A stretch of 64,000 nt of DNA, from contig CALWID010000001.1 in assembly GCA_944380635.1 (NCBI GenBank), forward strand, positions 88,374 through 152,373. Reading direction: 5' to 3'. Below, piece after piece: positions 2,199 through 51,663 of this stretch (the stretch's first letter is position 1; each line of letters starts with the position of its first letter). The position numbers were made by a program, and so were the translations under genes. The stretch is from an uncultured Eubacterium sp. Lineage in GTDB: Bacteria; Bacillota; Clostridia; Oscillospirales; Acutalibacteraceae. The notes below the pieces were generated by a model. It had not been told where the DNA came from and searched no databases. It saw only the letters and a list, made by a program, of their open reading frames with translations.

Positions 2199-3186
2199 GT
2201 TCATCAAACGCCTTTTCAATTTCATTTATAAGATTATTTTCAAGGAACCACACCGCCTGCTTAATTGCATTTTTAAATGTTTTGGCATCCGAACTGCCGT
2301 GCGCCTTTATAACGGGCTTTTTAACACCGAGCATAACGGCGCCGCCGTATTCCTTATAATCAAACTGTTTTTTCATTTCGTTTATTCCGCCGAGCACGCC
2401 CACCGCCGAAAGCATTGTAAAAATGTTCCGCTTAAAAACGGATTTTATCCCGTTCATGAGCACCTTTGCAACACCTTCGTACATTTTTAAGATGAGATTG
2501 CCTGAAAAGCCGTCCGCAACAACAACATCAGCGTCCCCGTACGGAATCTGCCGCGCCTCAATATTGCCGATAAAATTATAATCGGCGTTTTTCATAAGCG
2601 CGTACGCCTCTTTAACGACGGGGGTGCCTTTTGTTTCCTCCGTGCCGTTATTTGCAAGGGCAACGCGCGGATTTTCATAGCCGAGTATATGTTTCATATA
2701 GAGGCTGCCGAGCATACCGAACTGGTACAGAAATTCGGCTCTGCACTCTGTATTGGCGCCGCAGTCCAGCATTAAAAACGGCTTTTTGGCGCTTGGCATA
2801 ACGGACGCGATACAAGGCCTTTTAACGCCTTTGATTCTCTTTGTAATAAGAGTTGCGCCGACTGTTATTGCGCCTGTATTTCCCGCTGAAACAAACGCGT
2901 CCCCTGCGCCGTCATTAAGAAGTTTAAATCCCGTGCCCATACTTGAATCGGCTTTTTGTTTAAGGACGCATTTAGCGTCATCCGTCATAAGTACATCATC
3001 GCCCGCACAATGCGCGATTTCCGTTTTTTTAAGGCGGATATTATTTTCTTTAACGCATTTTGCTATTCTGTTTTCATCGCCGACAAGAAGTATATCCGTG
3101 CCGAATTCCTCAACAGCCATCTGCGTACCTTTTATAATTTCAAGCGGCGCGTTATCTCCTCCGAACGCGTCAACAATAATCCTCAT
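2191..3186 (-). CDS. plsX: Phosphate acyltransferase PlsX
   Basis: MRIIVDAFGGDNAP, SAGNTGA, LDCGAN and KAHGSS motifs. Confidence 0.97.
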   Translation of the reverse strand: MRIIVDAFGGDNAPLEIIKGTQMAVEEFGTDILLVGDENRIAKCVKENNIRLKKTEIAHCAGDDVLMTDDAKCVLKQKADSSMGTGFKLLNDGAGDAFVSAGNTGAITVGATLITKRIKGVKRPCIASVMPSAKKPFLMLDCGANTECRAEFLYQFGMLGSLYMKHILGYENPRVALANNGTEETKGTPVVKEAYALMKNADYNFIGNIEARQIPYGDADVVVADGFSGNLILKMYEGVAKVLMNGIKSVFKRNIFTMLSAVGVLGGINEMKKQFDYKEYGGAVMLGVKKPVIKAHGSSDAKTFKNAIKQAVWFLENNLINEIEKAFDEHE

Positions 3187-4477
3187 CTTTTATTATCCTT
3201 TCCAGAGCGCTGAGCGCCCTTTCGGAAAAAGCGGCATATCGCTGCTTTTTATCCTTTATTTTCGGTTCTATGGGCGGCAGAATACCGAAATTTGCTCCCA
3301 TAGGCTGAAAATTCTTTACAGTTTCATCACTTATGTATGCTGAAAGCGCGCCGGTCATAGTAACAGCGGGAAGTGAAAGAAATTTTTTCCCGCGGGCAAG
3401 CCGCACGGCATTTTTGCCGGCTATTATTCCGGACGCCGCTGATTCCATATACCCTTCAACTCCGGTTATCTGCCCTGCGAAAAACACATTAGGCTGTTTT
3501 CTGAGTTGGAAAGCCGGACTGAGCAGGCGCGGCGAATCGAGAAAAGAATTTCTGTGCATAACTCCGTATCTTACAAATTCCGCGTTTTCAAGACCGGGTA
3601 TCATTGAAAATACTCTTTTTTGCTCGCCGAATTTCAGATTGGTTTGAAAGCCGACGAGATTAAACATTGTGCCCTGAGAATTTTCCCGCCTTAACTGCAC
3701 TGCCGCCCATGGGCGGCGGCCTGTTTTGGGGTCTGTAAGCCCAACGGGTTTCATAGGCCCGAACCGAGGAGCGTCCTTGCCGCGCTTTGCGAGTTTTTCA
3801 ATAGGCATACAGCCCTCGTACACATCAAAATCATGCAGCACTGCACCCTGAGCGTTCACAAGTTCGTGTATAAAATTCTCATACTGTTCTTTATTAAACG
3901 GGCAGTTTAAATAATCGCTCTCCCCGCCTCTGCCGTATCGGGACGCGCCGAAAACAATATTCATATCAATGCTGTCCGCCGTAACAATCGGGGCGGCGGC
4001 GTCATAAAACGAAAGATAATCACCGCAGAGATTTTTAATGCTGCCGCTCATTGCACCCTCTGTAAGCGGACCGGTAGCAACTATTGTTATTTCATCTTCG
4101 CTGAGCGGAATATCGGTAACTTCGGCGTTTTTCACCGTTATATTCGGGTGAGATTTGATTTTTTCGGTAACACGGGAAGAAAAGATATTTCTGTCCACCG
4201 CTAAAGCGCCGCCCGCCGCCACCGCACATTCCCTTGCCAAAGGAACGGTGAGCGAACCGAGGCGCGCCATTTCCTCTTTTAAAAGGCCGGCGGCTGAATC
4301 TATGCGCGCCGCTTTAAGGGAATTTGAGCACACAAGTTCCGCAAAATTATCAGATTTATGTGCGGGAGATTTTTTAAGCGGTTTTTGCTCATAAAGCGTT
4401 ACCTTTTCACCGGCAACGGCAATCTGCCACGCGGCTTCCGTGCCGGCAAGGCCTGCGCCTATAACATTAAACTTCAT
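3170..4477 (-). CDS. trmFO: Folate/FAD-dependent tRNA (uracil-54) methyltransferase TrmFO
   Basis: VIGAGLAGTEAA, ELVCSNS, YDAAAP and AGQITGVEGY motifs; downstream of topA. Confidence 0.97.
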   Translation of the reverse strand: MKFNVIGAGLAGTEAAWQIAVAGEKVTLYEQKPLKKSPAHKSDNFAELVCSNSLKAARIDSAAGLLKEEMARLGSLTVPLARECAVAAGGALAVDRNIFSSRVTEKIKSHPNITVKNAEVTDIPLSEDEITIVATGPLTEGAMSGSIKNLCGDYLSFYDAAAPIVTADSIDMNIVFGASRYGRGGESDYLNCPFNKEQYENFIHELVNAQGAVLHDFDVYEGCMPIEKLAKRGKDAPRFGPMKPVGLTDPKTGRRPWAAVQLRRENSQGTMFNLVGFQTNLKFGEQKRVFSMIPGLENAEFVRYGVMHRNSFLDSPRLLSPAFQLRKQPNVFFAGQITGVEGYMESAASGIIAGKNAVRLARGKKFLSLPAVTMTGALSAYISDETVKNFQPMGANFGILPPIEPKIKDKKQRYAAFSERALSALERIIKDEDYC

Positions 4478-4479
4478 AA

Positions 4480-6579
4480 TTATTCTTCGCTTTTCTTTTT
4501 CCTGGCGGCAGGTTTTGTAAATCCGCAGCCCTCAGTATCCGGGCAGTAGAGAACATTGCCCTTTCTTTTAAACAGCGATTTGCCGCAGCGGGGGCATACC
4601 TCATCACTCGGTACATCCCAGGTCATAAAATTACAATTCGGGTAATTTGAGCAGCCGTAAAACGACGCGCCCTTTCTTGTTTTCTTTTCAATAACATCGC
4701 CGCCGCAGCGAGGGCATTTTGCTTTTGTTTTTAAAACAAGCGGCTTTGTGTTTTTACATTCGGGATAGCCCGGGCAGGCGAGGAATTTGCCGAATCTGCC
4801 TACTTTAACAACCATATGCCTGCCGCATTTTTCGCAGATTTCGTCCGTTTCCTCTTCCTTTAATTTTATCTTTACGCCCTGCATTTCCTTTTTGGCTTTT
4901 TCAAGCGGCTTTTCAAAATCGTCATAATAATGGCGTATCATATCTTTATAATTTTTTTCACCGCTGTCTATCTTATCAAGATCCTCTTCCATTTTTGAGG
5001 TGTATTTAACATTTACGATATTTGGCATTTTATCCTTAAGCAGTTTTATTACAGCCTCGCCGAGTTCGGTGGGCACAAACTGCTTGCCCTCACGCTTAAC
5101 ATATTCACGGGCAACGATTGTTGATGTTATGGTAACATAGGTAGACGGTCTGCCGACGCCGTTTTCCTCAAGCGCTTTTGTTAAACTTGCCTCAGTGTAC
5201 CTTGCGGGCGGCTGAGTGAAATGCTGATTGCCGAGCAGGGATTTCAGGCGGAGTTTATCGCCTGTTTTTATCTCCGGAAGCGGGGCGGAAGTATCACCCG
5301 AGGACTCATCTTTTGATTCCTCGTAAAGAGCGGTAAAACCGTCAAACTTAACAGTATAGCCGGAAGCGTTAAAAGTATAATTGCCTGCGGTTATTTCCGC
5401 GCGTACCGTTTCCTGAAGGCAGTTTTCCATAAGGGAAGCGATAAATCTTTCCCACACAAGTTTGTAAATTTTATACTGGTCATTAGTGAGCGACGATTTT
5501 ACACGCGCCGGAGTTACGCCGGGCATTGACGGGCGGATTGCCTCATGGCCGTCCTGCACATTGCCCTTTGACTTAAAATATCTTGGCTTTTTAGGCAGAT
5601 ATTTTTCGCCGTAATTATCAAGAATAAACTGATTTCCGGCGGCGCGCGCCTCCTCTGAAATACGGAGCGAATCAGTACGCATATAGGTTATAAGACCTAC
5701 CGTGCCGAGCCCCTCTACATCAACGCCCTCATACAATTCCTGAGCGGCTTTCATTGTTCTTCTTGCCTGGAAAGAAAGCCTCCTTGACGCCTCCTGCTGT
5801 AATGTTGAAGTAATAAACGGAGGCGTAGGGCTCTTTTTACGGGTGCCCTTTTTGACGGAAGTTACGATATACTCTTCTCCGTCAAGGTCGCTCAAAATCT
5901 TATCGCTTTCTTCTTTGCAGGTAATTTTTATCTTTTTACCGTCTTTACTGTTTAAAGCGGCGGAGAAAGTCTTTTTTCCGGGAGGATTTGTGAATTTTGC
6001 GTCTATTGACCAGTATTCTTCCGGCTTAAAGGCTCTTATTTCCTCCTCCCTGTCCACAACAAGGCGAAGGGCAACTGACTGCACTCTGCCGGCGGATAGC
6101 CCGCGCCTTATCTTCTGGCTAATGAACGGGGAAAGTTTATAGCCTATAAGTCTGTCCAGAATACGGCGCGCCTGCTGAGCGTCAACCAAATCTATATCTA
6201 TGCATCTGGGGTGCTCCATGCCCTGCTCAACGCCGTGCTTTGTAATCTCATTAAAAGTAACTCTGTTTTTATCCTTAAGGTCAAGCCCAAGGATAGTTGC
6301 CAGGTGCCAACTGATTGCCTCCCCCTCTCTATCAGGGTCTGTGGCAAGATAAACATAATCGGATTTATCCGCTTTTTTCTGAAGTTCCTTAACAAAATTT
6401 TCCTTGCCTTTTATAATTGCATATTTAGGGGTGAAGTCATGCTCAATATCCACCGAGAGCCTTGCGGACGGAAGATCACGCACATGGCCCATTGAAGCCA
6501 CAACATCATAACCCTTTCCGAGATAACCTTTTATATTTTTTGCCTTTGCAGGGGACTCAACTATTACAAGTTTTGACAT
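4480..6579 (-). CDS. topA: DNA topoisomerase I
   Basis: LVIVESPAK, ATDPDREGE, SAGRVQS and LITYMRTD motifs; C-terminal zinc ribbons. Confidence 0.98.
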   Translation of the reverse strand: MSKLVIVESPAKAKNIKGYLGKGYDVVASMGHVRDLPSARLSVDIEHDFTPKYAIIKGKENFVKELQKKADKSDYVYLATDPDREGEAISWHLATILGLDLKDKNRVTFNEITKHGVEQGMEHPRCIDIDLVDAQQARRILDRLIGYKLSPFISQKIRRGLSAGRVQSVALRLVVDREEEIRAFKPEEYWSIDAKFTNPPGKKTFSAALNSKDGKKIKITCKEESDKILSDLDGEEYIVTSVKKGTRKKSPTPPFITSTLQQEASRRLSFQARRTMKAAQELYEGVDVEGLGTVGLITYMRTDSLRISEEARAAGNQFILDNYGEKYLPKKPRYFKSKGNVQDGHEAIRPSMPGVTPARVKSSLTNDQYKIYKLVWERFIASLMENCLQETVRAEITAGNYTFNASGYTVKFDGFTALYEESKDESSGDTSAPLPEIKTGDKLRLKSLLGNQHFTQPPARYTEASLTKALEENGVGRPSTYVTITSTIVAREYVKREGKQFVPTELGEAVIKLLKDKMPNIVNVKYTSKMEEDLDKIDSGEKNYKDMIRHYYDDFEKPLEKAKKEMQGVKIKLKEEETDEICEKCGRHMVVKVGRFGKFLACPGYPECKNTKPLVLKTKAKCPRCGGDVIEKKTRKGASFYGCSNYPNCNFMTWDVPSDEVCPRCGKSLFKRKGNVLYCPDTEGCGFTKPAARKKKSEE

Positions 6580-43026: not shown

Positions 43027-43878
43027 ATGAATATTATAGACGGAAAAGCCGTTTCGGCATCAGTGCGTGAGCGTGTAAGGCTTGAAACGCAGGAACTTAA
43101 AAAGCAGGGTGTAACGCCCGGCCTTGCGGTAATTATAGTGGGCGATGACCCCGCTTCGCAGGTGTATGTAAGAAATAAAGAAAAAGCGTGCGCCGAGGTG
43201 GGCTTTTACAGTGAAAAATATGCCCTGCCGTCAAGCACCACTCAGCAGGAACTTAATAATCTTGTAAAAGAACTTAATGCGCGGGAAGAAATAAGCGGCA
43301 TACTCTGCCAACTTCCGCTGCCGGGGCACCTTAATGATAAAGAAGTTATAGAACTTATTGACCCTATTAAAGATGTTGACGCTTTTCACCCGGTAAATGT
43401 AGGCAGAATTATGATAGGCGATTATAATTTTCTGCCCTGCACTCCCGCCGGGATAATGGAACTTATCCGTTCTGCCGGCGTTGAAACAAAGGGCAAAAAA
43501 GCCGTTGTAATGGGCAGAAGCAATATTGTGGGCAAACCTATGTCCATGCTGCTTTTGCACGCGGACTGCACTGTTGAAATAACCCATTCAAAAACCGAAA
43601 ACCTAAAAGATATAACAAAAACGGCGGATATACTTGTTGCCGCAATAGGCAGGGCAAAATTTGTTACCGCGGATATGGTAAAGGACGGCGCCGTGGTTAT
43701 AGATGTTGGTATGAACAGGGATGAAAACGGAAAACTCTGCGGCGATGTTGATTTTGACAGCGTTGCTCCAAAGTGCTCATTCATAACGCCTGTTCCCGGC
43801 GGCGTGGGGCCTATGACTATTTCTATGCTTATGCAAAATACTCTTACCGCCGCAAAACTTCAGAATAATATTAAATAA
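43027..43878 (+). CDS. folD: Bifunctional methylenetetrahydrofolate dehydrogenase/cyclohydrolase
   Basis: YVRNK, QLPLP, KDVDAFHP, PCTPAG, GRSNIVGKP and PVPGGVGPMT motifs. Confidence 0.98.
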   Translation: MNIIDGKAVSASVRERVRLETQELKKQGVTPGLAVIIVGDDPASQVYVRNKEKACAEVGFYSEKYALPSSTTQQELNNLVKELNAREEISGILCQLPLPGHLNDKEVIELIDPIKDVDAFHPVNVGRIMIGDYNFLPCTPAGIMELIRSAGVETKGKKAVVMGRSNIVGKPMSMLLLHADCTVEITHSKTENLKDITKTADILVAAIGRAKFVTADMVKDGAVVIDVGMNRDENGKLCGDVDFDSVAPKCSFITPVPGGVGPMTISMLMQNTLTAAKLQNNIK

Positions 43879-44000
43879 TATTTTAACTGTTTAATTATAT
43901 TAAGCGTATTTTTTACATAGAATTTACTCAATTGGGATATTAAAATAATATACTAAGTATTAATTATTAATCTTTGCTTGATATATAAAGGTATGGTCTT

Positions 44001-44831
44001 ATGGAAATTATTGAAATCATAAAAGCGTTGGTGCTCGGAATTGTAGAGGGCATAACTGAATGGCTGCCCATCAGTTCAACCGGGCATATGATACTCGTTG
44101 ATGAATTTTTAAAACTTAATGTATCAGAGGAATTTAAAAGTATGTTCCTCGTTGTTATCCAACTCGGCGCTATTCTTGCCGTTGTTGTGCTGTATTTCAA
44201 AAAACTTATTCCGCTTGATGTGCAAAATAAAAAACTGCACTGGAAAAAAGATACCCTTGTAATGTGGCTTAAAATAATCGTATCCTGTATCCCGGCGGCA
44301 ATAGTGGGCGTGTTTTTTGACGATGAACTTGAAGCCGTGTTTTATAATTGGCAAACGGTTTCCGCCGCTCTGATTATTTTCGGTATCCTGTTTATAATTA
44401 TTGAAAAGCGCAACCGCAGCAGGGAGCCTAAAATAAATTCCATAAATGATATATCGTATAAAACAGCAGTAATAATCGGTATCTTTCAACTTATAGCCGC
44501 AGTTTTCCCCGGCACTTCAAGAAGCGGCGCAACTATCGTGGGCGCTCTTTTGATAGGCGTTTCAAGGTCAGTAGCCGCTGAATATACTTTTTTCCTTGCA
44601 GTACCCGTAATGTTTGGCGCAAGCGCGCTTAAACTTGTTAAATTCGGCTTTAATTTTACTTCTCAGGAACTTGTTATTCTTTTTGTGGGGCTTGTTTCGG
44701 CGTTCGTCGTTTCAATCCTTGCTATAAAATTCCTTATGAATTATATCAAAAAACATGATTTTACCGCTTTCGGCTGGTATAGAATCGTGCTCGGCGCAGC
44801 AGTTATTCTCTATTTCGCTGTTGCCGGCTGA
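44001..44831 (+). CDS. uppP: Undecaprenyl-diphosphate phosphatase
   Basis: [17 protein letters not shown] and [11 protein letters not shown] motifs. Confidence 0.97.
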
Positions 44832-45362: not shown

Positions 45363-45391
45363 TTGACAAAAATTTGTCGATATACTAAAAT
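45363..45391 (+). promoter_or_regulatory. Sigma-A promoter of the subtilase-LRR gene with overlapping palindrome
   Basis: TTGACA (45363-45368), 17-nt spacer, TAAAAT (45386-45391); GACAAA-AA-TTTGTC overlaps the -35. Confidence 0.7.
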
Positions 45392-45471: not shown

Positions 45472-48400
45472 ATGAAAAAATTTCTTGCTTTGTTTTTGAC
45501 TTTGATGATGATAATATCATCCCTTAGTATTGCCTTTCCTGTATTTGCAGATACGGGAGCGGAAGTTGATACGGTAGTAGATGAACTTTCGGAACTGTAC
45601 AGAGACGAGGCGGAAGATGATAAAAGTATAGAAGATTCCGCTGCCAGCCGTGTAATCGTTAAGGCAAATATTAAGCCGGAAACTTACGGCGATGCTGAAA
45701 TGATAAAAGGTACAGATGATATTTACATTTATCAGTATGAAACAGCATCTGAAGCAGCCAGCGCCCTCGAATATTATGACTCCCTAAATTATGTTAAATG
45801 GGCAGAAACGGACGGTATTATGGAAGGTCAATCCCTTTCCTACGGCAACCAAATGGTCGGCGGAGACGAGGCAAAGACATATGTTTCTACCCACAATGTT
45901 GAGTTGAACGATGTGAATGTTGCGCTTGTTGATTCAGGAGTGCTGTTCTCAAACTCAATGTTCGACGGCAGAGTTACGGATTCGGGCGTGAATTTGTCTG
46001 ATACAGGTGATAAAAATACAGCTTCAGACGGTAATGGTCACGGTTCGCATATTGCAAGCATAATCATAGATAATACAACGGATAATGTGCATATAACGGC
46101 ATATAAAGTGCTGAATCAATATAGAGTGGGAACGCACCTTGCTGTTGCAACAGGTATAAATATGGCGGTAGATGATGGCGCAGATATAATCAGCCTTAGT
46201 ATAACATCAGAAGACAGATCCGAACTCATTATTGATGCCGTGAAAAATGCTTATGAAAATGGCGTAATAATTGTAAACAGCGCCGGCAATAATTCTGACG
46301 ATGTTGCAAATTATTATCCTGCTAATATGGATGAAGTATTTACTGTTGGCGCTACCGATGAATTTGGTCGTCGTGCGTTTTTTACTAATTTCGGTGAAGA
46401 AATAGACTTTGTTGCACCGGGACATGATATTGAGATGACCGGTTTCCACGAACTCATAGATACGAAAAATCCAACAGATAACGGAACATCTTTTTCAGTA
46501 CCTTATGTTACTGCGGCAGCTGCTATGGTATTAAGCGTTGATCCTAATCTGGGAATTGAGGAGGTAAAGCAAAGGCTTATTGATTCCTGCATACCTATGG
46601 AATCGCTGCAATTTAGAGATGGATTTCATCCGATTGAAGATTATGATCCTGTTACAGCTTGGTATTTGGCGGAAAGCGATCCTTTAACTGAAGAAGAGTG
46701 CTACGGCTACGGTATGCCTCAAATACTCAGAGCAATGCAGATAACGGAAAAAAACAGCCCCGTTGAGTTTTCCGTTCAGTCGGGTTCTTATCACGAAACC
46801 TTTGAGCTTACACTCACCGCCGATGAAGGTTCAGATATATATTACACAACTGAAGAAGTTTACCCCTCACCGGAAAACTCGACTCTATATACAGGTTCTA
46901 TTGAAGTATCTGAGACCATGTCCGTAAGGGCTATAGCAGTATCAGATGATAAATCAAAGAGTACACCGGTAGCCTGTGAATACAAAATGTCTTACTACGC
47001 AGATGAAGATGATTTTGAGATAGATGACAGAGGGTATATTACAAAATACACAGGTAATTTGCGTGAACTGATAGTACCGGAAACCATAGACGGAATAACC
47101 GTTAAAGGTGTTGCTGAATATGGTATTAGCAGACAATCTTTAAGGACCATTGTATTCCCGGATACAGTTGAAGAATTAGAAGACTATTCGTTATGTAATT
47201 GTTATTATATTGATTTTATAATAGGTCACGGCATAAAAAGAATAGGTACTGAAATGACCTGGAGTGAAATACTGGTTCTTGATACACCTGCGGTCGAAAC
47301 TATAGGAGAACTTGCATTTCAATATGTCGGTCGGGAATTATATCTGCCCGAACTGTGTGAAGCCGGTAATTATCTATTTAACGGTGCGCAAAATCTAAAG
47401 GAAGTTAACTTTCCTAAACTAAAAGCAGTAAGTTACAAAATGTTTTCGGATTGTTATATTTTAAGAACTGTTAAATTGGATAGTGTTGAATCCGTTGATG
47501 CAGATGCCTTTGCAAACTGTTATCTGCTAAAAAATATTTATATGCCCGAGTTAAAACATTTGATCAGTGTTAATAAACCGGACGAAGGAACTTTTTACAG
47601 ATGTTTTAACTTAACGGAAGTAAGCTTCCCTCTTGTTCAAGAGATCCCTGATCTTTGTTTTAATGATTGTGAAAAACTTGTTAAAGCAAATTTTGAAAGT
47701 GCCGTTTCCATTGGCTACAGTGCATTTGGTTATTGTTACGAGTTAAATGAAATACATTTCCCAAAATTGAAAGAAATAAATTTCAGAGGATTTTTGGACA
47801 CAGCTCTTTCTGAGGTAAATCTTCCATCATTAGTAACCATTGGTGAAGAGGCTTTTTGTAATTCTACAATCAGTTCGTTATACGCACCCAGTCTTGAAAT
47901 CATAGAATACAACGCCTTTTCATACCTTAGAATGGAAACACATATACAAAATCAAACTTTAAAGCACTTATATGCACCAAAACTCACAACATTATCCGAC
48001 GAGGCTTTGGCTTATACAGGCGGACTTACTGAACTTGATCTTCCAAACCTTAAAACCATAGGTGAAAACGCTTTTTATGAAAGCGGAGTAAATTATCTTT
48101 ACGCACCTGAACTTCAAACAGCGGAAAGTCTGCCTGTTGCTGAAAACGCAGTTGTGGTTGTATCTGATAAACTGACAAATTGTACCTTTGAGCCGACAGA
48201 TAAATCCTTAACTATCCAAGGTGTTAAAGACTCATACAGTCAGGAATATGCAGAATCAAACGGTCTTGAATTTATTGATGTTAACGCTATGGGTGGATCA
48301 ATAAGGGTTACAGACGCAGGACTTAGATTTGGATATTCATTCTATGACACGCAGAAAAAGAATGTTGAGGAATATGGCTTTGTCTATGCCGCCGGAGAGC

Positions 48401-48699
48401 AGGGCAGAAATGATTTAACGGTTGAGCAGATAGACGATGAAAGCGTATTGCAGCTTATTGCATACAATCGCTTAACGCATGAAGACGAAACCACAACATT
48501 TAATCTTGTGTTTACTGATATTCCACAGGCGTCATATGATACGGAAGTGTCTGCAAGGGCGTATGTAAAAATAGACGGGATTTATTATTATTCAGATGTT
48601 ACAACTCGCAGTTTCAACCAGGTTGCAAACGCCGTCCTTGCGGACGATGAAATAGACCAAAATACAAAAAACTCATTAAGTAATTTATTAAAGGCATAA
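45472..48699 (+). CDS. Secreted multidomain protein: S8 subtilase, Fn3/CHB_HEX_C-like domain, BspA-type LRRs and a conserved C-terminal beta domain
   Basis: Signal peptide; catalytic triad VALVDSG / HGSHIAS / GTSFSVP; IYYTT...P...STLYTGSI segment; repeated L..v.fP.L..I...AF units. Confidence 0.88.
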   Translation: MKKFLALFLTLMMIISSLSIAFPVFADTGAEVDTVVDELSELYRDEAEDDKSIEDSAASRVIVKANIKPETYGDAEMIKGTDDIYIYQYETASEAASALEYYDSLNYVKWAETDGIMEGQSLSYGNQMVGGDEAKTYVSTHNVELNDVNVALVDSGVLFSNSMFDGRVTDSGVNLSDTGDKNTASDGNGHGSHIASIIIDNTTDNVHITAYKVLNQYRVGTHLAVATGINMAVDDGADIISLSITSEDRSELIIDAVKNAYENGVIIVNSAGNNSDDVANYYPANMDEVFTVGATDEFGRRAFFTNFGEEIDFVAPGHDIEMTGFHELIDTKNPTDNGTSFSVPYVTAAAAMVLSVDPNLGIEEVKQRLIDSCIPMESLQFRDGFHPIEDYDPVTAWYLAESDPLTEEECYGYGMPQILRAMQITEKNSPVEFSVQSGSYHETFELTLTADEGSDIYYTTEEVYPSPENSTLYTGSIEVSETMSVRAIAVSDDKSKSTPVACEYKMSYYADEDDFEIDDRGYITKYTGNLRELIVPETIDGITVKGVAEYGISRQSLRTIVFPDTVEELEDYSLCNCYYIDFIIGHGIKRIGTEMTWSEILVLDTPAVETIGELAFQYVGRELYLPELCEAGNYLFNGAQNLKEVNFPKLKAVSYKMFSDCYILRTVKLDSVESVDADAFANCYLLKNIYMPELKHLISVNKPDEGTFYRCFNLTEVSFPLVQEIPDLCFNDCEKLVKANFESAVSIGYSAFGYCYELNEIHFPKLKEINFRGFLDTALSEVNLPSLVTIGEEAFCNSTISSLYAPSLEIIEYNAFSYLRMETHIQNQTLKHLYAPKLTTLSDEALAYTGGLTELDLPNLKTIGENAFYESGVNYLYAPELQTAESLPVAENAVVVVSDKLTNCTFEPTDKSLTIQGVKDSYSQEYAESNGLEFIDVNAMGGSIRVTDAGLRFGYSFYDTQKKNVEEYGFVYAAGEQGRNDLTVEQIDDESVLQLIAYNRLTHEDETTTFNLVFTDIPQASYDTEVSARAYVKIDGIYYYSDVTTRSFNQVANAVLADDEIDQNTKNSLSNLLKA

Positions 48700-48701
48700 A
48701 A

Positions 48702-48809
48702 ATGAAATTAAAGTATGAAAGACCCGAAACCGAAGTGAACGAATTTACAACAGTTGATGTTATATCAACCAGCGGCGATGATAACGATACTACATTCCCT
48801 GGGACATAA
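48702..48809 (+). CDS. 35-aa micropeptide MKLKYERPETEVNEFTTVDVISTSGDDNDTTFPGT (below the ORF-track cutoff)
   Basis: Manual translation. ATG lies 2 nt after the subtilase stop and the stop falls just before a terminator; YxxP...F...D(V/I)I-TS pattern. Confidence 0.72.
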   Translation: MKLKYERPETEVNEFTTVDVISTSGDDNDTTFPGT

Positions 48810-48818
48810 GTAATTGAA

Positions 48819-48845
48819 AAGCGGGAAGATTCAATCTTCCCGCTT
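48819..48845. terminator. Probable bidirectional terminator
   Basis: Perfect 12-bp stem AAGCGGGAAGAT/ATCTTCCCGCTT between convergent genes. Confidence 0.8.
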
Positions 48846-48869: not shown

Positions 48870-49226
48870 TTATTTAAGTTTTTCAGCCCATTCTTTTTCC
48901 TTAAAGCCTGTAAGTACAAAATTTTCTGAAACTATAAGCGGACGCTTAACAAGCATTCCGTTTGAGGCAAGAAGCCGAAGTTGCTCATCTTCGCCCATAT
49001 CAGGCAATTTATCTTTTAACTTCATAGATTTATAAATCATTCCGCTTGTATTAAAAAATCTTTTAAGTTCAAGTCCGCTCCTTTCATACCATTCTTTCAG
49101 TTCGTCATAAGTGGGATTATTTTCAACAATATGTCTGTCTGTATAATCGACGCCGTTTGAATCAAGCCATTTTTTTGCCTTTTGGCAGGTTGAACATTTA
49201 GGGTATTCAATAAAAAGCATAGTCAT
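48870..49226 (-). CDS. ArsC/Spx/MgsR-family protein
   Basis: YPKCSTCQKAKKWL, FFNTSG and GMLVKRP motifs. Confidence 0.92.
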   Translation of the reverse strand: MTMLFIEYPKCSTCQKAKKWLDSNGVDYTDRHIVENNPTYDELKEWYERSGLELKRFFNTSGMIYKSMKLKDKLPDMGEDEQLRLLASNGMLVKRPLIVSENFVLTGFKEKEWAEKLK

Positions 49227-49356: not shown

Positions 49357-51663
49357 TTATATAATTTTGATTTCTGACGATACGCCGTTTGCGGTTACCG
49401 TTACGGCGCCTGATTCACCCGCGCGCACTGCCGCGAGCGCTCTGCCGTAATAAGTTGTGTACTCACCGCTGTCAAACCTTTCCTGAGTTCTTGGGTTTGC
49501 GGAACCGAAAGCAAGAAGTTCGCCGCCGTTTACGCTGACTTTAACTTTTTCATCTGCGTTACATTCAACAATGCCGTTTTTATCCGCAACAACAATATTT
49601 ACATAGCAAATTTCATACGGTTTTACCGTACTTTTTTCGGGATAAACGCAAACTGAAATATCATCACCCGACGAAACAAGGGTATTTTCGGAAACCGCTT
49701 TTCCGAAATTATCATAAGCGACCGCTTTTACAACGCCCGGCTCATAATTCACTTTGAATACAGCCTTATTCAGTTTTGTTTTCTTTTTGGCAATCGGTTT
49801 TGAATTTATGAAAAGTTCAACGCTGAAAGCGTCAGTATACACCTCAACCACTGCCTTTTTACCGGCGCAGTTTTTCCAACTCCAACTGTCTATCGCATTT
49901 GAGCCGCGCCACACTGCTTTAGCCGGTTTTGTGCCGTGATTCACGGGCTGAACACCTATCCACGGCTTTTCGAGCATTCCCCACGCGGATTTTGCGTAAG
50001 CAACGGGTGCGCCGGCGTTGCCGAGAATATCAAAAGCGCCGCAATCTGCAAGCAGCCAAGGATAAGGCTTGTCAAAGCCTTTGCCGTCCGCAGTATAAGC
50101 CCACGCGCCCAAACCTACTTCGCCGAGATAATCCCAAGCAGTCCACATAAAATCGCCAACAAGATAAGGATATTTTTTAACCATATTCCAGTTTTTCACT
50201 ATATCCTGAGGGAAAGTTTCACTGCCGACTACAATTCTGCCCGGGTGTTCTTTTGGCTCGGCGGGATACCTGCCTGAGGCGTAGTTATACCCTGCTATAT
50301 CAAGGGTATCAAGCACCGGGGACACGGCTCTGTCCACACTTTTTAATTTGGAAAAATCATTCATAGCCGTGCCTGTAAAACTTGTGATAAGATTAAACAA
50401 AGTGCTGTTCATACTGCCTGTTTTATTTTTCTTATCATTTTTCCTGCCGCCCTCTTTATCATCATAAATGCCTTTGCCGCTTTTTGCCATTCTGAGTATC
50501 ATCAGATTTATTCCGGCGGTAACGGCTCTTGACGAATCAAGCGTATGGAGATAATCAGTCATTTCACGGGCGGCCGCTACACCGGTATCGGTTGCAGGCT
50601 CCGAAACTTCATTGCCTATTGAATACATTATTACGCTGGGATGATTATAATCCCTGTTTACCATTGCCTTTAAATCCGTAAGATGATTTTCTTTCCACTT
50701 TGACGCATAATCATATTTATTTTTGTGGTTATACCACATATCCCAAGCCTCGTCCATAACATACAATCCGAGAGTATCGCATGCCTCAAGCATTGCGCGC
50801 GAAACAGGATTGTGAGCGGAACGCACGGCGTTAAATCCGGCGTTTTTTAACATGCGCGCTTTGCGAAATTCGCTTTCATCAAAAGTTGCCGAGCCTAAAA
50901 TACCGCTGTCATGATGCAGGCATCCGCCGCGCAGCAAAACCTGCATGCCGTTTACAAAAAGTCCGCGGCTGTTCCACTCAACTTTTCTTATTCCGAAAGT
51001 GAATTCACATTCATCTGTATCCGTATACGCTTTGCAGGTATAAAGAAACGGTGATTCATCGCTCCATAGTTTACCGGACGGAATATCAAGTTCAAAATCG
51101 GCGCCTCTGCCGGACGCAACCACGGCGCCGCCGCAAGTAATTTCCACATTCACTACCCTATCGCTCGTTACTCTGATAACTGCGGGGCTGTATGAAACTG
51201 TTGAAATTTTAACGCTTTGAGGCTCAATACAGTCGCCCGTGCCGACATACATCCAAACAGGGCGGTATATTCCGGCGCCGGAGTACCAACGGCTGTCCGG
51301 CTGCTGAACATTATCACATTCCACACGAATAATATTTTCACCTTTTACAAGAAGTCCGTCCGCCTGAACAAAAAACGGAATATAACCGTAATCCGCACCG
51401 CCGGCTTCCCTGCCGTTAATAAAAACGCGGGCATTTTTATAAACGCCCTCAAACTCAAAAACTATGTGTTTTGAAAGCATTTCATCTGGCACATTAAAAG
51501 ATTTTTCATAAACATAACTGCCGCCGGAAAAATACGCCTGAGCGCCGCCACTTTCGGCATTAGTAGTGCGCAGGGTATGTATCATAGCGTCATGCGGCAC
51601 CAAAACTTCTTTTCCGTTACACTTCCAATTATCGTTAAAAGATATTTTTTGCATAAATATCAC
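49357..51663 (-). CDS. Glycoside hydrolase family 2 (beta-galactosidase-like), cytoplasmic
   Basis: RWYSGAGIYRPV, GGCLHHD, RSAHNP, NHPSVIMYSIGNE (acid/base Glu) and VGSE (nucleophile) motifs; no signal peptide. Confidence 0.92.
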   Translation of the reverse strand: MIFMQKISFNDNWKCNGKEVLVPHDAMIHTLRTTNAESGGAQAYFSGGSYVYEKSFNVPDEMLSKHIVFEFEGVYKNARVFINGREAGGADYGYIPFFVQADGLLVKGENIIRVECDNVQQPDSRWYSGAGIYRPVWMYVGTGDCIEPQSVKISTVSYSPAVIRVTSDRVVNVEITCGGAVVASGRGADFELDIPSGKLWSDESPFLYTCKAYTDTDECEFTFGIRKVEWNSRGLFVNGMQVLLRGGCLHHDSGILGSATFDESEFRKARMLKNAGFNAVRSAHNPVSRAMLEACDTLGLYVMDEAWDMWYNHKNKYDYASKWKENHLTDLKAMVNRDYNHPSVIMYSIGNEVSEPATDTGVAAAREMTDYLHTLDSSRAVTAGINLMILRMAKSGKGIYDDKEGGRKNDKKNKTGSMNSTLFNLITSFTGTAMNDFSKLKSVDRAVSPVLDTLDIAGYNYASGRYPAEPKEHPGRIVVGSETFPQDIVKNWNMVKKYPYLVGDFMWTAWDYLGEVGLGAWAYTADGKGFDKPYPWLLADCGAFDILGNAGAPVAYAKSAWGMLEKPWIGVQPVNHGTKPAKAVWRGSNAIDSWSWKNCAGKKAVVEVYTDAFSVELFINSKPIAKKKTKLNKAVFKVNYEPGVVKAVAYDNFGKAVSENTLVSSGDDISVCVYPEKSTVKPYEICYVNIVVADKNGIVECNADEKVKVSVNGGELLAFGSANPRTQERFDSGEYTTYYGRALAAVRAGESGAVTVTANGVSSEIKII

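Follow-up and report, generated by a model that had tools for sequence, protein, structure and literature searches.

A small gene directly behind a secreted subtilase gene of an uncultured Eubacterium sp. most likely encodes a precursor of linear phosphorylated peptides

The analysed window of 64,000 nucleotides (positions 88374-152373 of contig CALWID010000001.1, assembly GCA_944380635.1, here genome G000, contig C1) contains at 45472-48699(+) a gene for a 1075-aa secreted protein with a signal peptide, an S8 subtilase domain, an Fn3_assoc/CHB_HEX_C region and BspA-type LRRs, as assigned with Pfam. The region encoding its C-terminal domain (residues about 936-1075) spans 48277-48696. The TAA stop codon lies at 48697-48699, and an ATG-started ORF of 35 codons begins 2 nt later, at 48702-48809(+), encoding MKLKYERPETEVNEFTTVDVISTSGDDNDTTFPGT. 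A Shine-Dalgarno-like AAAGG at 48690-48694(+), 7 nt before the ATG, is located inside the end of the subtilase gene, consistent with translational coupling. Residues 1-24 (48702-48773; MKLKYERPETEVNEFTTVDVISTS) form a conserved, leader-like part with Y5xxP8, F15-x-T17, T/S22 and S24 and the sequence T23-S24-G25 at its end, while 48774-48809 encodes a variable acidic tail (GDDNDTTFPGT) and the stop codon. This tail is a shortened version of that of the paralog at C1:70388-70519, and the same short tail type occurs in other assemblies. The observation of an unannotated micropeptide gene at this position in the initial annotation is therefore confirmed, apart from the distance to the following hairpin, which is 11 nt and not 9 nt.

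This hairpin, at 48821-48843, has a G+C-rich stem of 9 bp (dG about -20 kcal/mol, z about -6) and was not flagged by a consensus terminator scan. As its U-tract is on the minus-strand side, it is best read as a terminator of the convergent Spx/ArsC-family gene (48870-49226) that is used bidirectionally. A sigma-70-like promoter (TTGACA-17-TAAAAT, 11 of 12 positions) lies at 45363-45391(+), upstream of the subtilase gene, and no site of similar quality was found between the subtilase gene and the small ORF. This fits a bicistronic transcript, although it is only a consensus match and no expression data were obtained. The neighboring genes at 49357-51663 and 43027-44831 are ordinary, namely a GH2 beta-galactosidase-like gene, FolD and undecaprenyl-diphosphatase (UppP), and no RiPP enzyme lies in the part of the window that was examined (about 40-56 kb).

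The absence of homologs with a conserved frame and motif had been named in advance as an outcome that would speak against the gene. A pattern scan of the 2.0-Mb genome instead identified nine paralogs of 35-45 aa, which share MK..Y..P..EIE.F..(D)V(I)TTSG followed by a variable acidic tail that usually ends near an aromatic residue. A profile search of a protein collection returned 160 clusters with E of 0.01 or less, all of 33-76 aa and none with a name, and a scan of one genome per species returned 70 loci in gut MAGs labelled Eubacterium sp., Ruminococcaceae or Clostridia. In total about 180 distinct sequences were collected. Of 60 sampled genomes of the genus, 55 carry 1-12 copies. In the order, recognisable relatives were found in 20 of 150 other sampled genomes (21 of 151 including this one), spread over 12 families, but in 0 of 7 from the other genera of the genome's own family. 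Searches of Pfam and NCBIfam gave no hit for the peptide or its paralogs. Third codon positions vary most, with 11.9 against 6.4 and 4.0 differences per pair over 24 codons in relatives and 14.3 against 10.6 and 8.6 in the genome's own paralogs; the relatives were retrieved with amino-acid patterns, which inflates the contrast for them. An SD-like core precedes 63 of the 70 copies, and the paralog at locus L010 has a full AAAGGAGG.

All nine copies in the genome are located on the same strand, 2-20 nt and in one case 94 nt downstream of a large ORF with an N-terminal signal peptide. Eight of these ORFs encode 1073-2020 aa and the ninth is cut by a contig end, whereas the whole genome has only 38 ORFs of 1000 aa or more. 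Five of the partners are paralogous S8 subtilase - Fn3_assoc - BspA-LRR proteins, while the other four show no S8 domain. Among the 70 related loci, 58 peptides lie -38 to +136 nt downstream of a same-strand ORF of 300 aa or more (median about 1000 aa), two lie just upstream of such a gene, two are at contig edges and eight were scored as orphans. One of these eight, L078 (CP091724.1, Anaerotruncus sp. MAG, about 2824-6126), actually follows a subtilase-LRR pseudogene that is broken into at least four ORFs, while the 41-aa peptide ORF remains intact.

The linkage of the peptide with the C-terminal domain, which had likewise been proposed as a test, was confirmed. The last 140 aa or so of the subtilase-LRR proteins form a domain that was found with an HMM in 5 of 5 own paralogs and in 33 partner proteins of relatives, always at the very C-terminus (type 1). 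A second group of partners ends in a related domain (type 2), and iterated profiles started from this group merge with the first. The C-termini of the two 1787-aa and 2020-aa partners match the profile with 91% hhalign probability, the 1507-aa partner with only 46%. AF2 models the domain confidently as a beta-sandwich, with two additional helices in type 1. Foldseek found only weak Ig/CBM-like neighbors (CBM56, the GNBP3 N-terminal domain and the PPAD Ig-like domain) with TM at or below 0.54. Two subtilase-LRR paralogs, L009 (C1:158676-162139) and L014 (C10:39862-43223), are 40% identical overall but share one single 690-bp block at 95% nucleotide identity, which covers only the C-terminal domain, the peptide gene and 85 nt downstream; the two peptides are identical. 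This indicates recent gene conversion of a module of domain and peptide. As an exception, a fragment of a type-2 domain at the end of contig C35 (17627-17977, minus strand), nearly identical to the one at the start of contig C13, is followed directly by a terminator-like sequence and no peptide ORF. Such repeats probably cause the contig breaks.

The leader resembles those bound by the RREs of lasso systems, as stated in the initial annotation, and it is also correct that no RRE lies in the window. However, the genome encodes two standalone PqqD-family proteins of 88-91 aa, whose best NCBIfam similarity is to lasso B1 chaperones, below the cut-off. One of them is directly followed by a PF14907 nucleotidyltransferase gene, an adjacency that is conserved in the genus. 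The second PqqD gene (C22:4980-5246) sits alone next to a HAD hydrolase gene, and a second PF14907 gene (C31:872-2083) follows an XRE-type HTH gene; it is unknown whether the two RREs divide the nine precursors between them. A 237-aa P-loop protein (C1:22770-23483) with an SGTGKST motif matches a profile derived from the gene clusters described below with E 9e-66. It is distantly similar to HprK-related kinases and ScmC. Further, a 160-aa S26/SipW-like peptidase (C9:24319-24801), with S34, H72 and D87 invariant in the alignment, is encoded by a gene that overlaps an ABC_membrane+ABC_tran exporter gene by 4 nt. The exporter gene is followed by a second ORF of similar size (570 aa), the domains of which were not checked. 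The peptidase gene and the ABC pair lie at C9:20902-24801. In this genome the genes are dispersed over contigs C1, C9, C21, C22 and C31 and do not form one cluster with the precursor.

The enzymes and the peptides are genetically associated. In the genus sample, the five genomes without the peptide (designated G157, G181, G184, G188 and G192) are exactly the five without a standalone PqqD, while all 55 peptide-positive genomes have one. The five also lack the kinase, with three further misses in fragmented assemblies, and the peptidase, with one further miss, and each has only one, weaker PF14907 copy. No species tree was built to test whether these five form one clade, and they may represent a single loss. 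Independent support comes from the order, in which 20 of 20 peptide-positive genomes have a PqqD with E of 1e-6 or less, against 41 of 130 peptide-negative genomes. In several other families of the order the genes are physically clustered (L097-L103). The clearest case is L097 in the complete genome G039 (C1:944000-960000), with two tandem large proteins, of which the first carries a weak match to the C-terminal domain, followed by a 32-aa peptide homolog, kinase, PqqD, ABC exporter, PF14907 and a response regulator. Genomes G019, G026 and G136 have the peptide with large secreted proteins, kinase, PqqD and S26 peptidase, plus PF14907 in G026. In G010 (L100:6651-7826) and G087 (L101:3-1166) the HprK-like kinase and the PqqD RRE are fused into one protein of about 390 aa, next to a peptide homolog and a PF14907 gene; the latter is inferred here from size and position, as Pfam confirmed it only in other clusters. 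These fusions are direct evidence that the kinase and the RRE work together.

The same enzyme set defines the linear polyphosphorylated peptides (LPPs) of Bacillota, described in 2026 for Paenibacillus alginolyticus (Popov et al., Nat Commun 2026, PMC13381572). Their gene clusters encode the precursor LppA, the HprK-like kinase LppK, the discrete RRE LppB, the archaeal-type signal peptidase I LppS, the MsbA-like pump LppD and the NTP transferase LppN, without a cyclase. LppB binds Y(-16)xxP(-13), LppS cleaves after F(-3)E(-2)T(-1) and LppK polyphosphorylates Ser3 of the core, whereas LppN was inactive in the host used; the final product and its role are unknown. The paper does not mention surface proteins or Clostridia in its text, although RRE-linked peptidases from Ruminococcus and Lachnospiraceae are found in minor clusters of its supplementary table. 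In agreement with an LPP leader, the peptide and all paralogs in the genome have the Tyr-type YxxP motif and a variable C-terminus. Among the 180 family sequences Y5 and P8 were fixed by our selection pattern, so their invariance there is not informative. F15-x-T17 is present as well (F in 172 and T in 110 of 180), but its spacing, P-x6-F-x-T, is three residues shorter than the published P-x9-F-x-[T/A], and this comparison leaves it undecided whether the element ends the leader as in LppA. The phospho-acceptor Ser of LppA at +3 after F-x-T is absent, the residue being Val. The best-conserved hydroxyl residues are T/S22 (178 of 180) and S24 (171 of 180), the latter at +7 from F-x-T but 19 residues after the Tyr against 18 in the LPP consensus, so that analogy alone does not fix the cleavage and acceptor sites. 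Many type-2 tails contain no Ser or Thr. The two PqqD proteins find LppB (9x8z_B) as their best PDB chain, but only with E 0.3-0.9, which leaves their membership of the LppB clade unsettled. Furthermore, the cores are only 10-20 residues long, against 45 in LppA, up to 12 scattered precursor genes occur per genome, each in an operon with the 3' end of a giant secreted protein gene, the enzyme genes in this genus are dispersed and do not form one BGC, the host is an uncultured gut Clostridia genus and not a member of the Bacilli, and there is no capsule-locus context.

Two other systems are related. The phosphorylated lasso peptides of Bacillota of the paeninodin/pseudomycoidin type share a [Y/W]xxP leader bound by a discrete B1 RRE, an HPr-kinase-like kinase and a nucleotidyltransferase as tailoring enzymes, and an ABC exporter (PMC8498205). 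They differ by the macrolactam cyclase and the B2 cysteine protease, which were not found in this genome; the family described here has Tyr and not Trp in the motif, and its tails do not end in Ser. The HprK-related kinase A/B and SynChlorMet (ScmC/ScmD) cassettes of TIGRFAMs/NCBIfam resemble the system in that the kinase-like protein gives its best hits to ScmC, HprK_rel_A and HprK_rel_B and is paired with a PqqD-family protein. However, all scores are far below the curated cut-offs and no radical SAM partner is present.

Taken together, we consider it likely, with reasonable though not full confidence, that the ORF encodes an LppA-like precursor of an LPP-type peptide that is matured in trans. 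In this view, and by analogy with the LPP system, the Y5xxP8 leader would be bound by a standalone PqqD-family RRE, the HprK-like kinase would phosphorylate a serine, most likely the near-invariant Ser24, and the S26/SipW-type peptidase would remove the leader, either after F15-x-T17 or around T22. A PF14907 nucleotidyltransferase may add a further group, and an MsbA-like ABC exporter would release the short acidic tail peptide. In this genus the scattered enzyme genes would serve many precursor genes. As each precursor gene is attached to the 3' end of a gene for a large, anchor-less secreted protein, most of which share the C-terminal domain, the mature peptide probably acts together with that protein outside the cell, by an unknown mechanism. 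The existence of the family, its linkage to large secreted proteins, the presence of every enzyme and their co-occurrence and clustering are shown by our data, whereas the modified residue, the cleavage site, export and any interaction with the surface protein are inferred; polyphosphorylation and leader cleavage of the product were not measured. Since the enzyme genes are not next to the peptide in this genome, the assignment rests on co-occurrence. The interpretation in the initial annotation is partly supported: a leader-like micropeptide family linked to surface-protein loci and to a conserved C-terminal domain, with a lasso/RRE-type leader but no lasso product, was correctly proposed, while the RREs and the maturation and export set encoded elsewhere in the genome were missed.

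The precursor genes of a recently described peptide class are thus multiplied and tied to genes for giant secreted proteins of abundant, uncultured human and animal gut Clostridia, which gives a concrete lead that LPP-type peptides may work with cell-surface proteins. It also shows that RiPP precursors can be scattered far from their enzymes, where genome mining centred on gene clusters will not find them, and supplies annotation for hundreds of unnamed small genes. More speculatively, and rather unlikely on present evidence, the matured phospho-(glyco)peptides could be dedicated extracellular partners of the otherwise anchor-less giant proteins, as a docking site, a cofactor or a wall-linked tether, each recognised by the conserved C-terminal beta-sandwich encoded just upstream. 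LPP-type RiPPs would then be components of a modular surface-display system in gut Clostridia rather than antibiotics.

Alternatively, the peptide could be an unmodified, chaperone-like or strand-donating binding partner of the C-terminal domain. The strict adjacency to the coding end of the domain, tail classes that follow domain classes and the joint conversion of domain and peptide would agree with this. To test for docking, which had been suggested beforehand as one possible role, two natural in-frame arrangements of domain, linker and peptide were folded with AF2, the stop being read as Gln: L010 (type 1, unpaired rows) and L039 (type 2, eight paired rows). In both the domain has a pLDDT around 90 (above 90 for L010), while the peptide stays below 50 and makes no contact. 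This argues against a simple complex with the unmodified peptide but is not decisive, as the linkers are short and the matured, phosphorylated fragment may still bind. An apparent similarity of the leader to a strand of the domain in a MAFFT alignment is an artefact, as the peptide HMM finds nothing in the domains. As the peptide also has no signal peptide while its partner is exported by Sec, and as the co-occurrence and clustering with kinase, RRE, peptidase and exporter would be left unexplained, we regard this explanation as unlikely. Equally unlikely appears a secreted signalling pro-peptide (pheromone) that reports expression of the surface protein, possibly still matured by the LPP enzymes. 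The conserved leader with a hypervariable short tail ending in an aromatic residue, the exporter and the response regulator in L097 would fit, but no receptor (RRNPP regulator or histidine kinase) is consistently linked, and up to 12 different peptides per genome, each tied to a structural gene, would be unusual for quorum sensing.

A role as substrate, pro-segment or inhibitor of the adjacent subtilase, as in LanP-type systems, is very unlikely. S8 proteases remove leaders in class I lanthipeptides and five of the nine partners are S8 subtilases, but the idea does not generalise to the other four or to the many type-2 partners of relatives without this domain, and a dedicated S26 leader peptidase co-occurs with the peptides. 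A lasso-peptide precursor, suggested by the YxxP leader and the Thr at -2 before Gly25, is effectively ruled out: in the genome, which is 98.65% complete, the only Asn-synthase homolog is an ordinary AsnB (TIGR01536 at 470 bits, against 232 bits for the lasso cyclase model with a cut-off of 525), no B2 protease was found, GDDNDTTFPGT has no Asp or Glu at positions 7-9, and the acidic residue is not at a fixed position 7-9 across the family. Export as a double-glycine leader bacteriocin was rejected as well, since no C39 peptidase-domain transporter (PF03412) was matched in the genome. Finally, a chance ORF, for which only its length of 35 codons, the weak SD of this copy and the lack of expression data would speak, is very unlikely given the homologs that keep frame and motif, the codon-position pattern and the SD-like cores in 63 of 70 loci.
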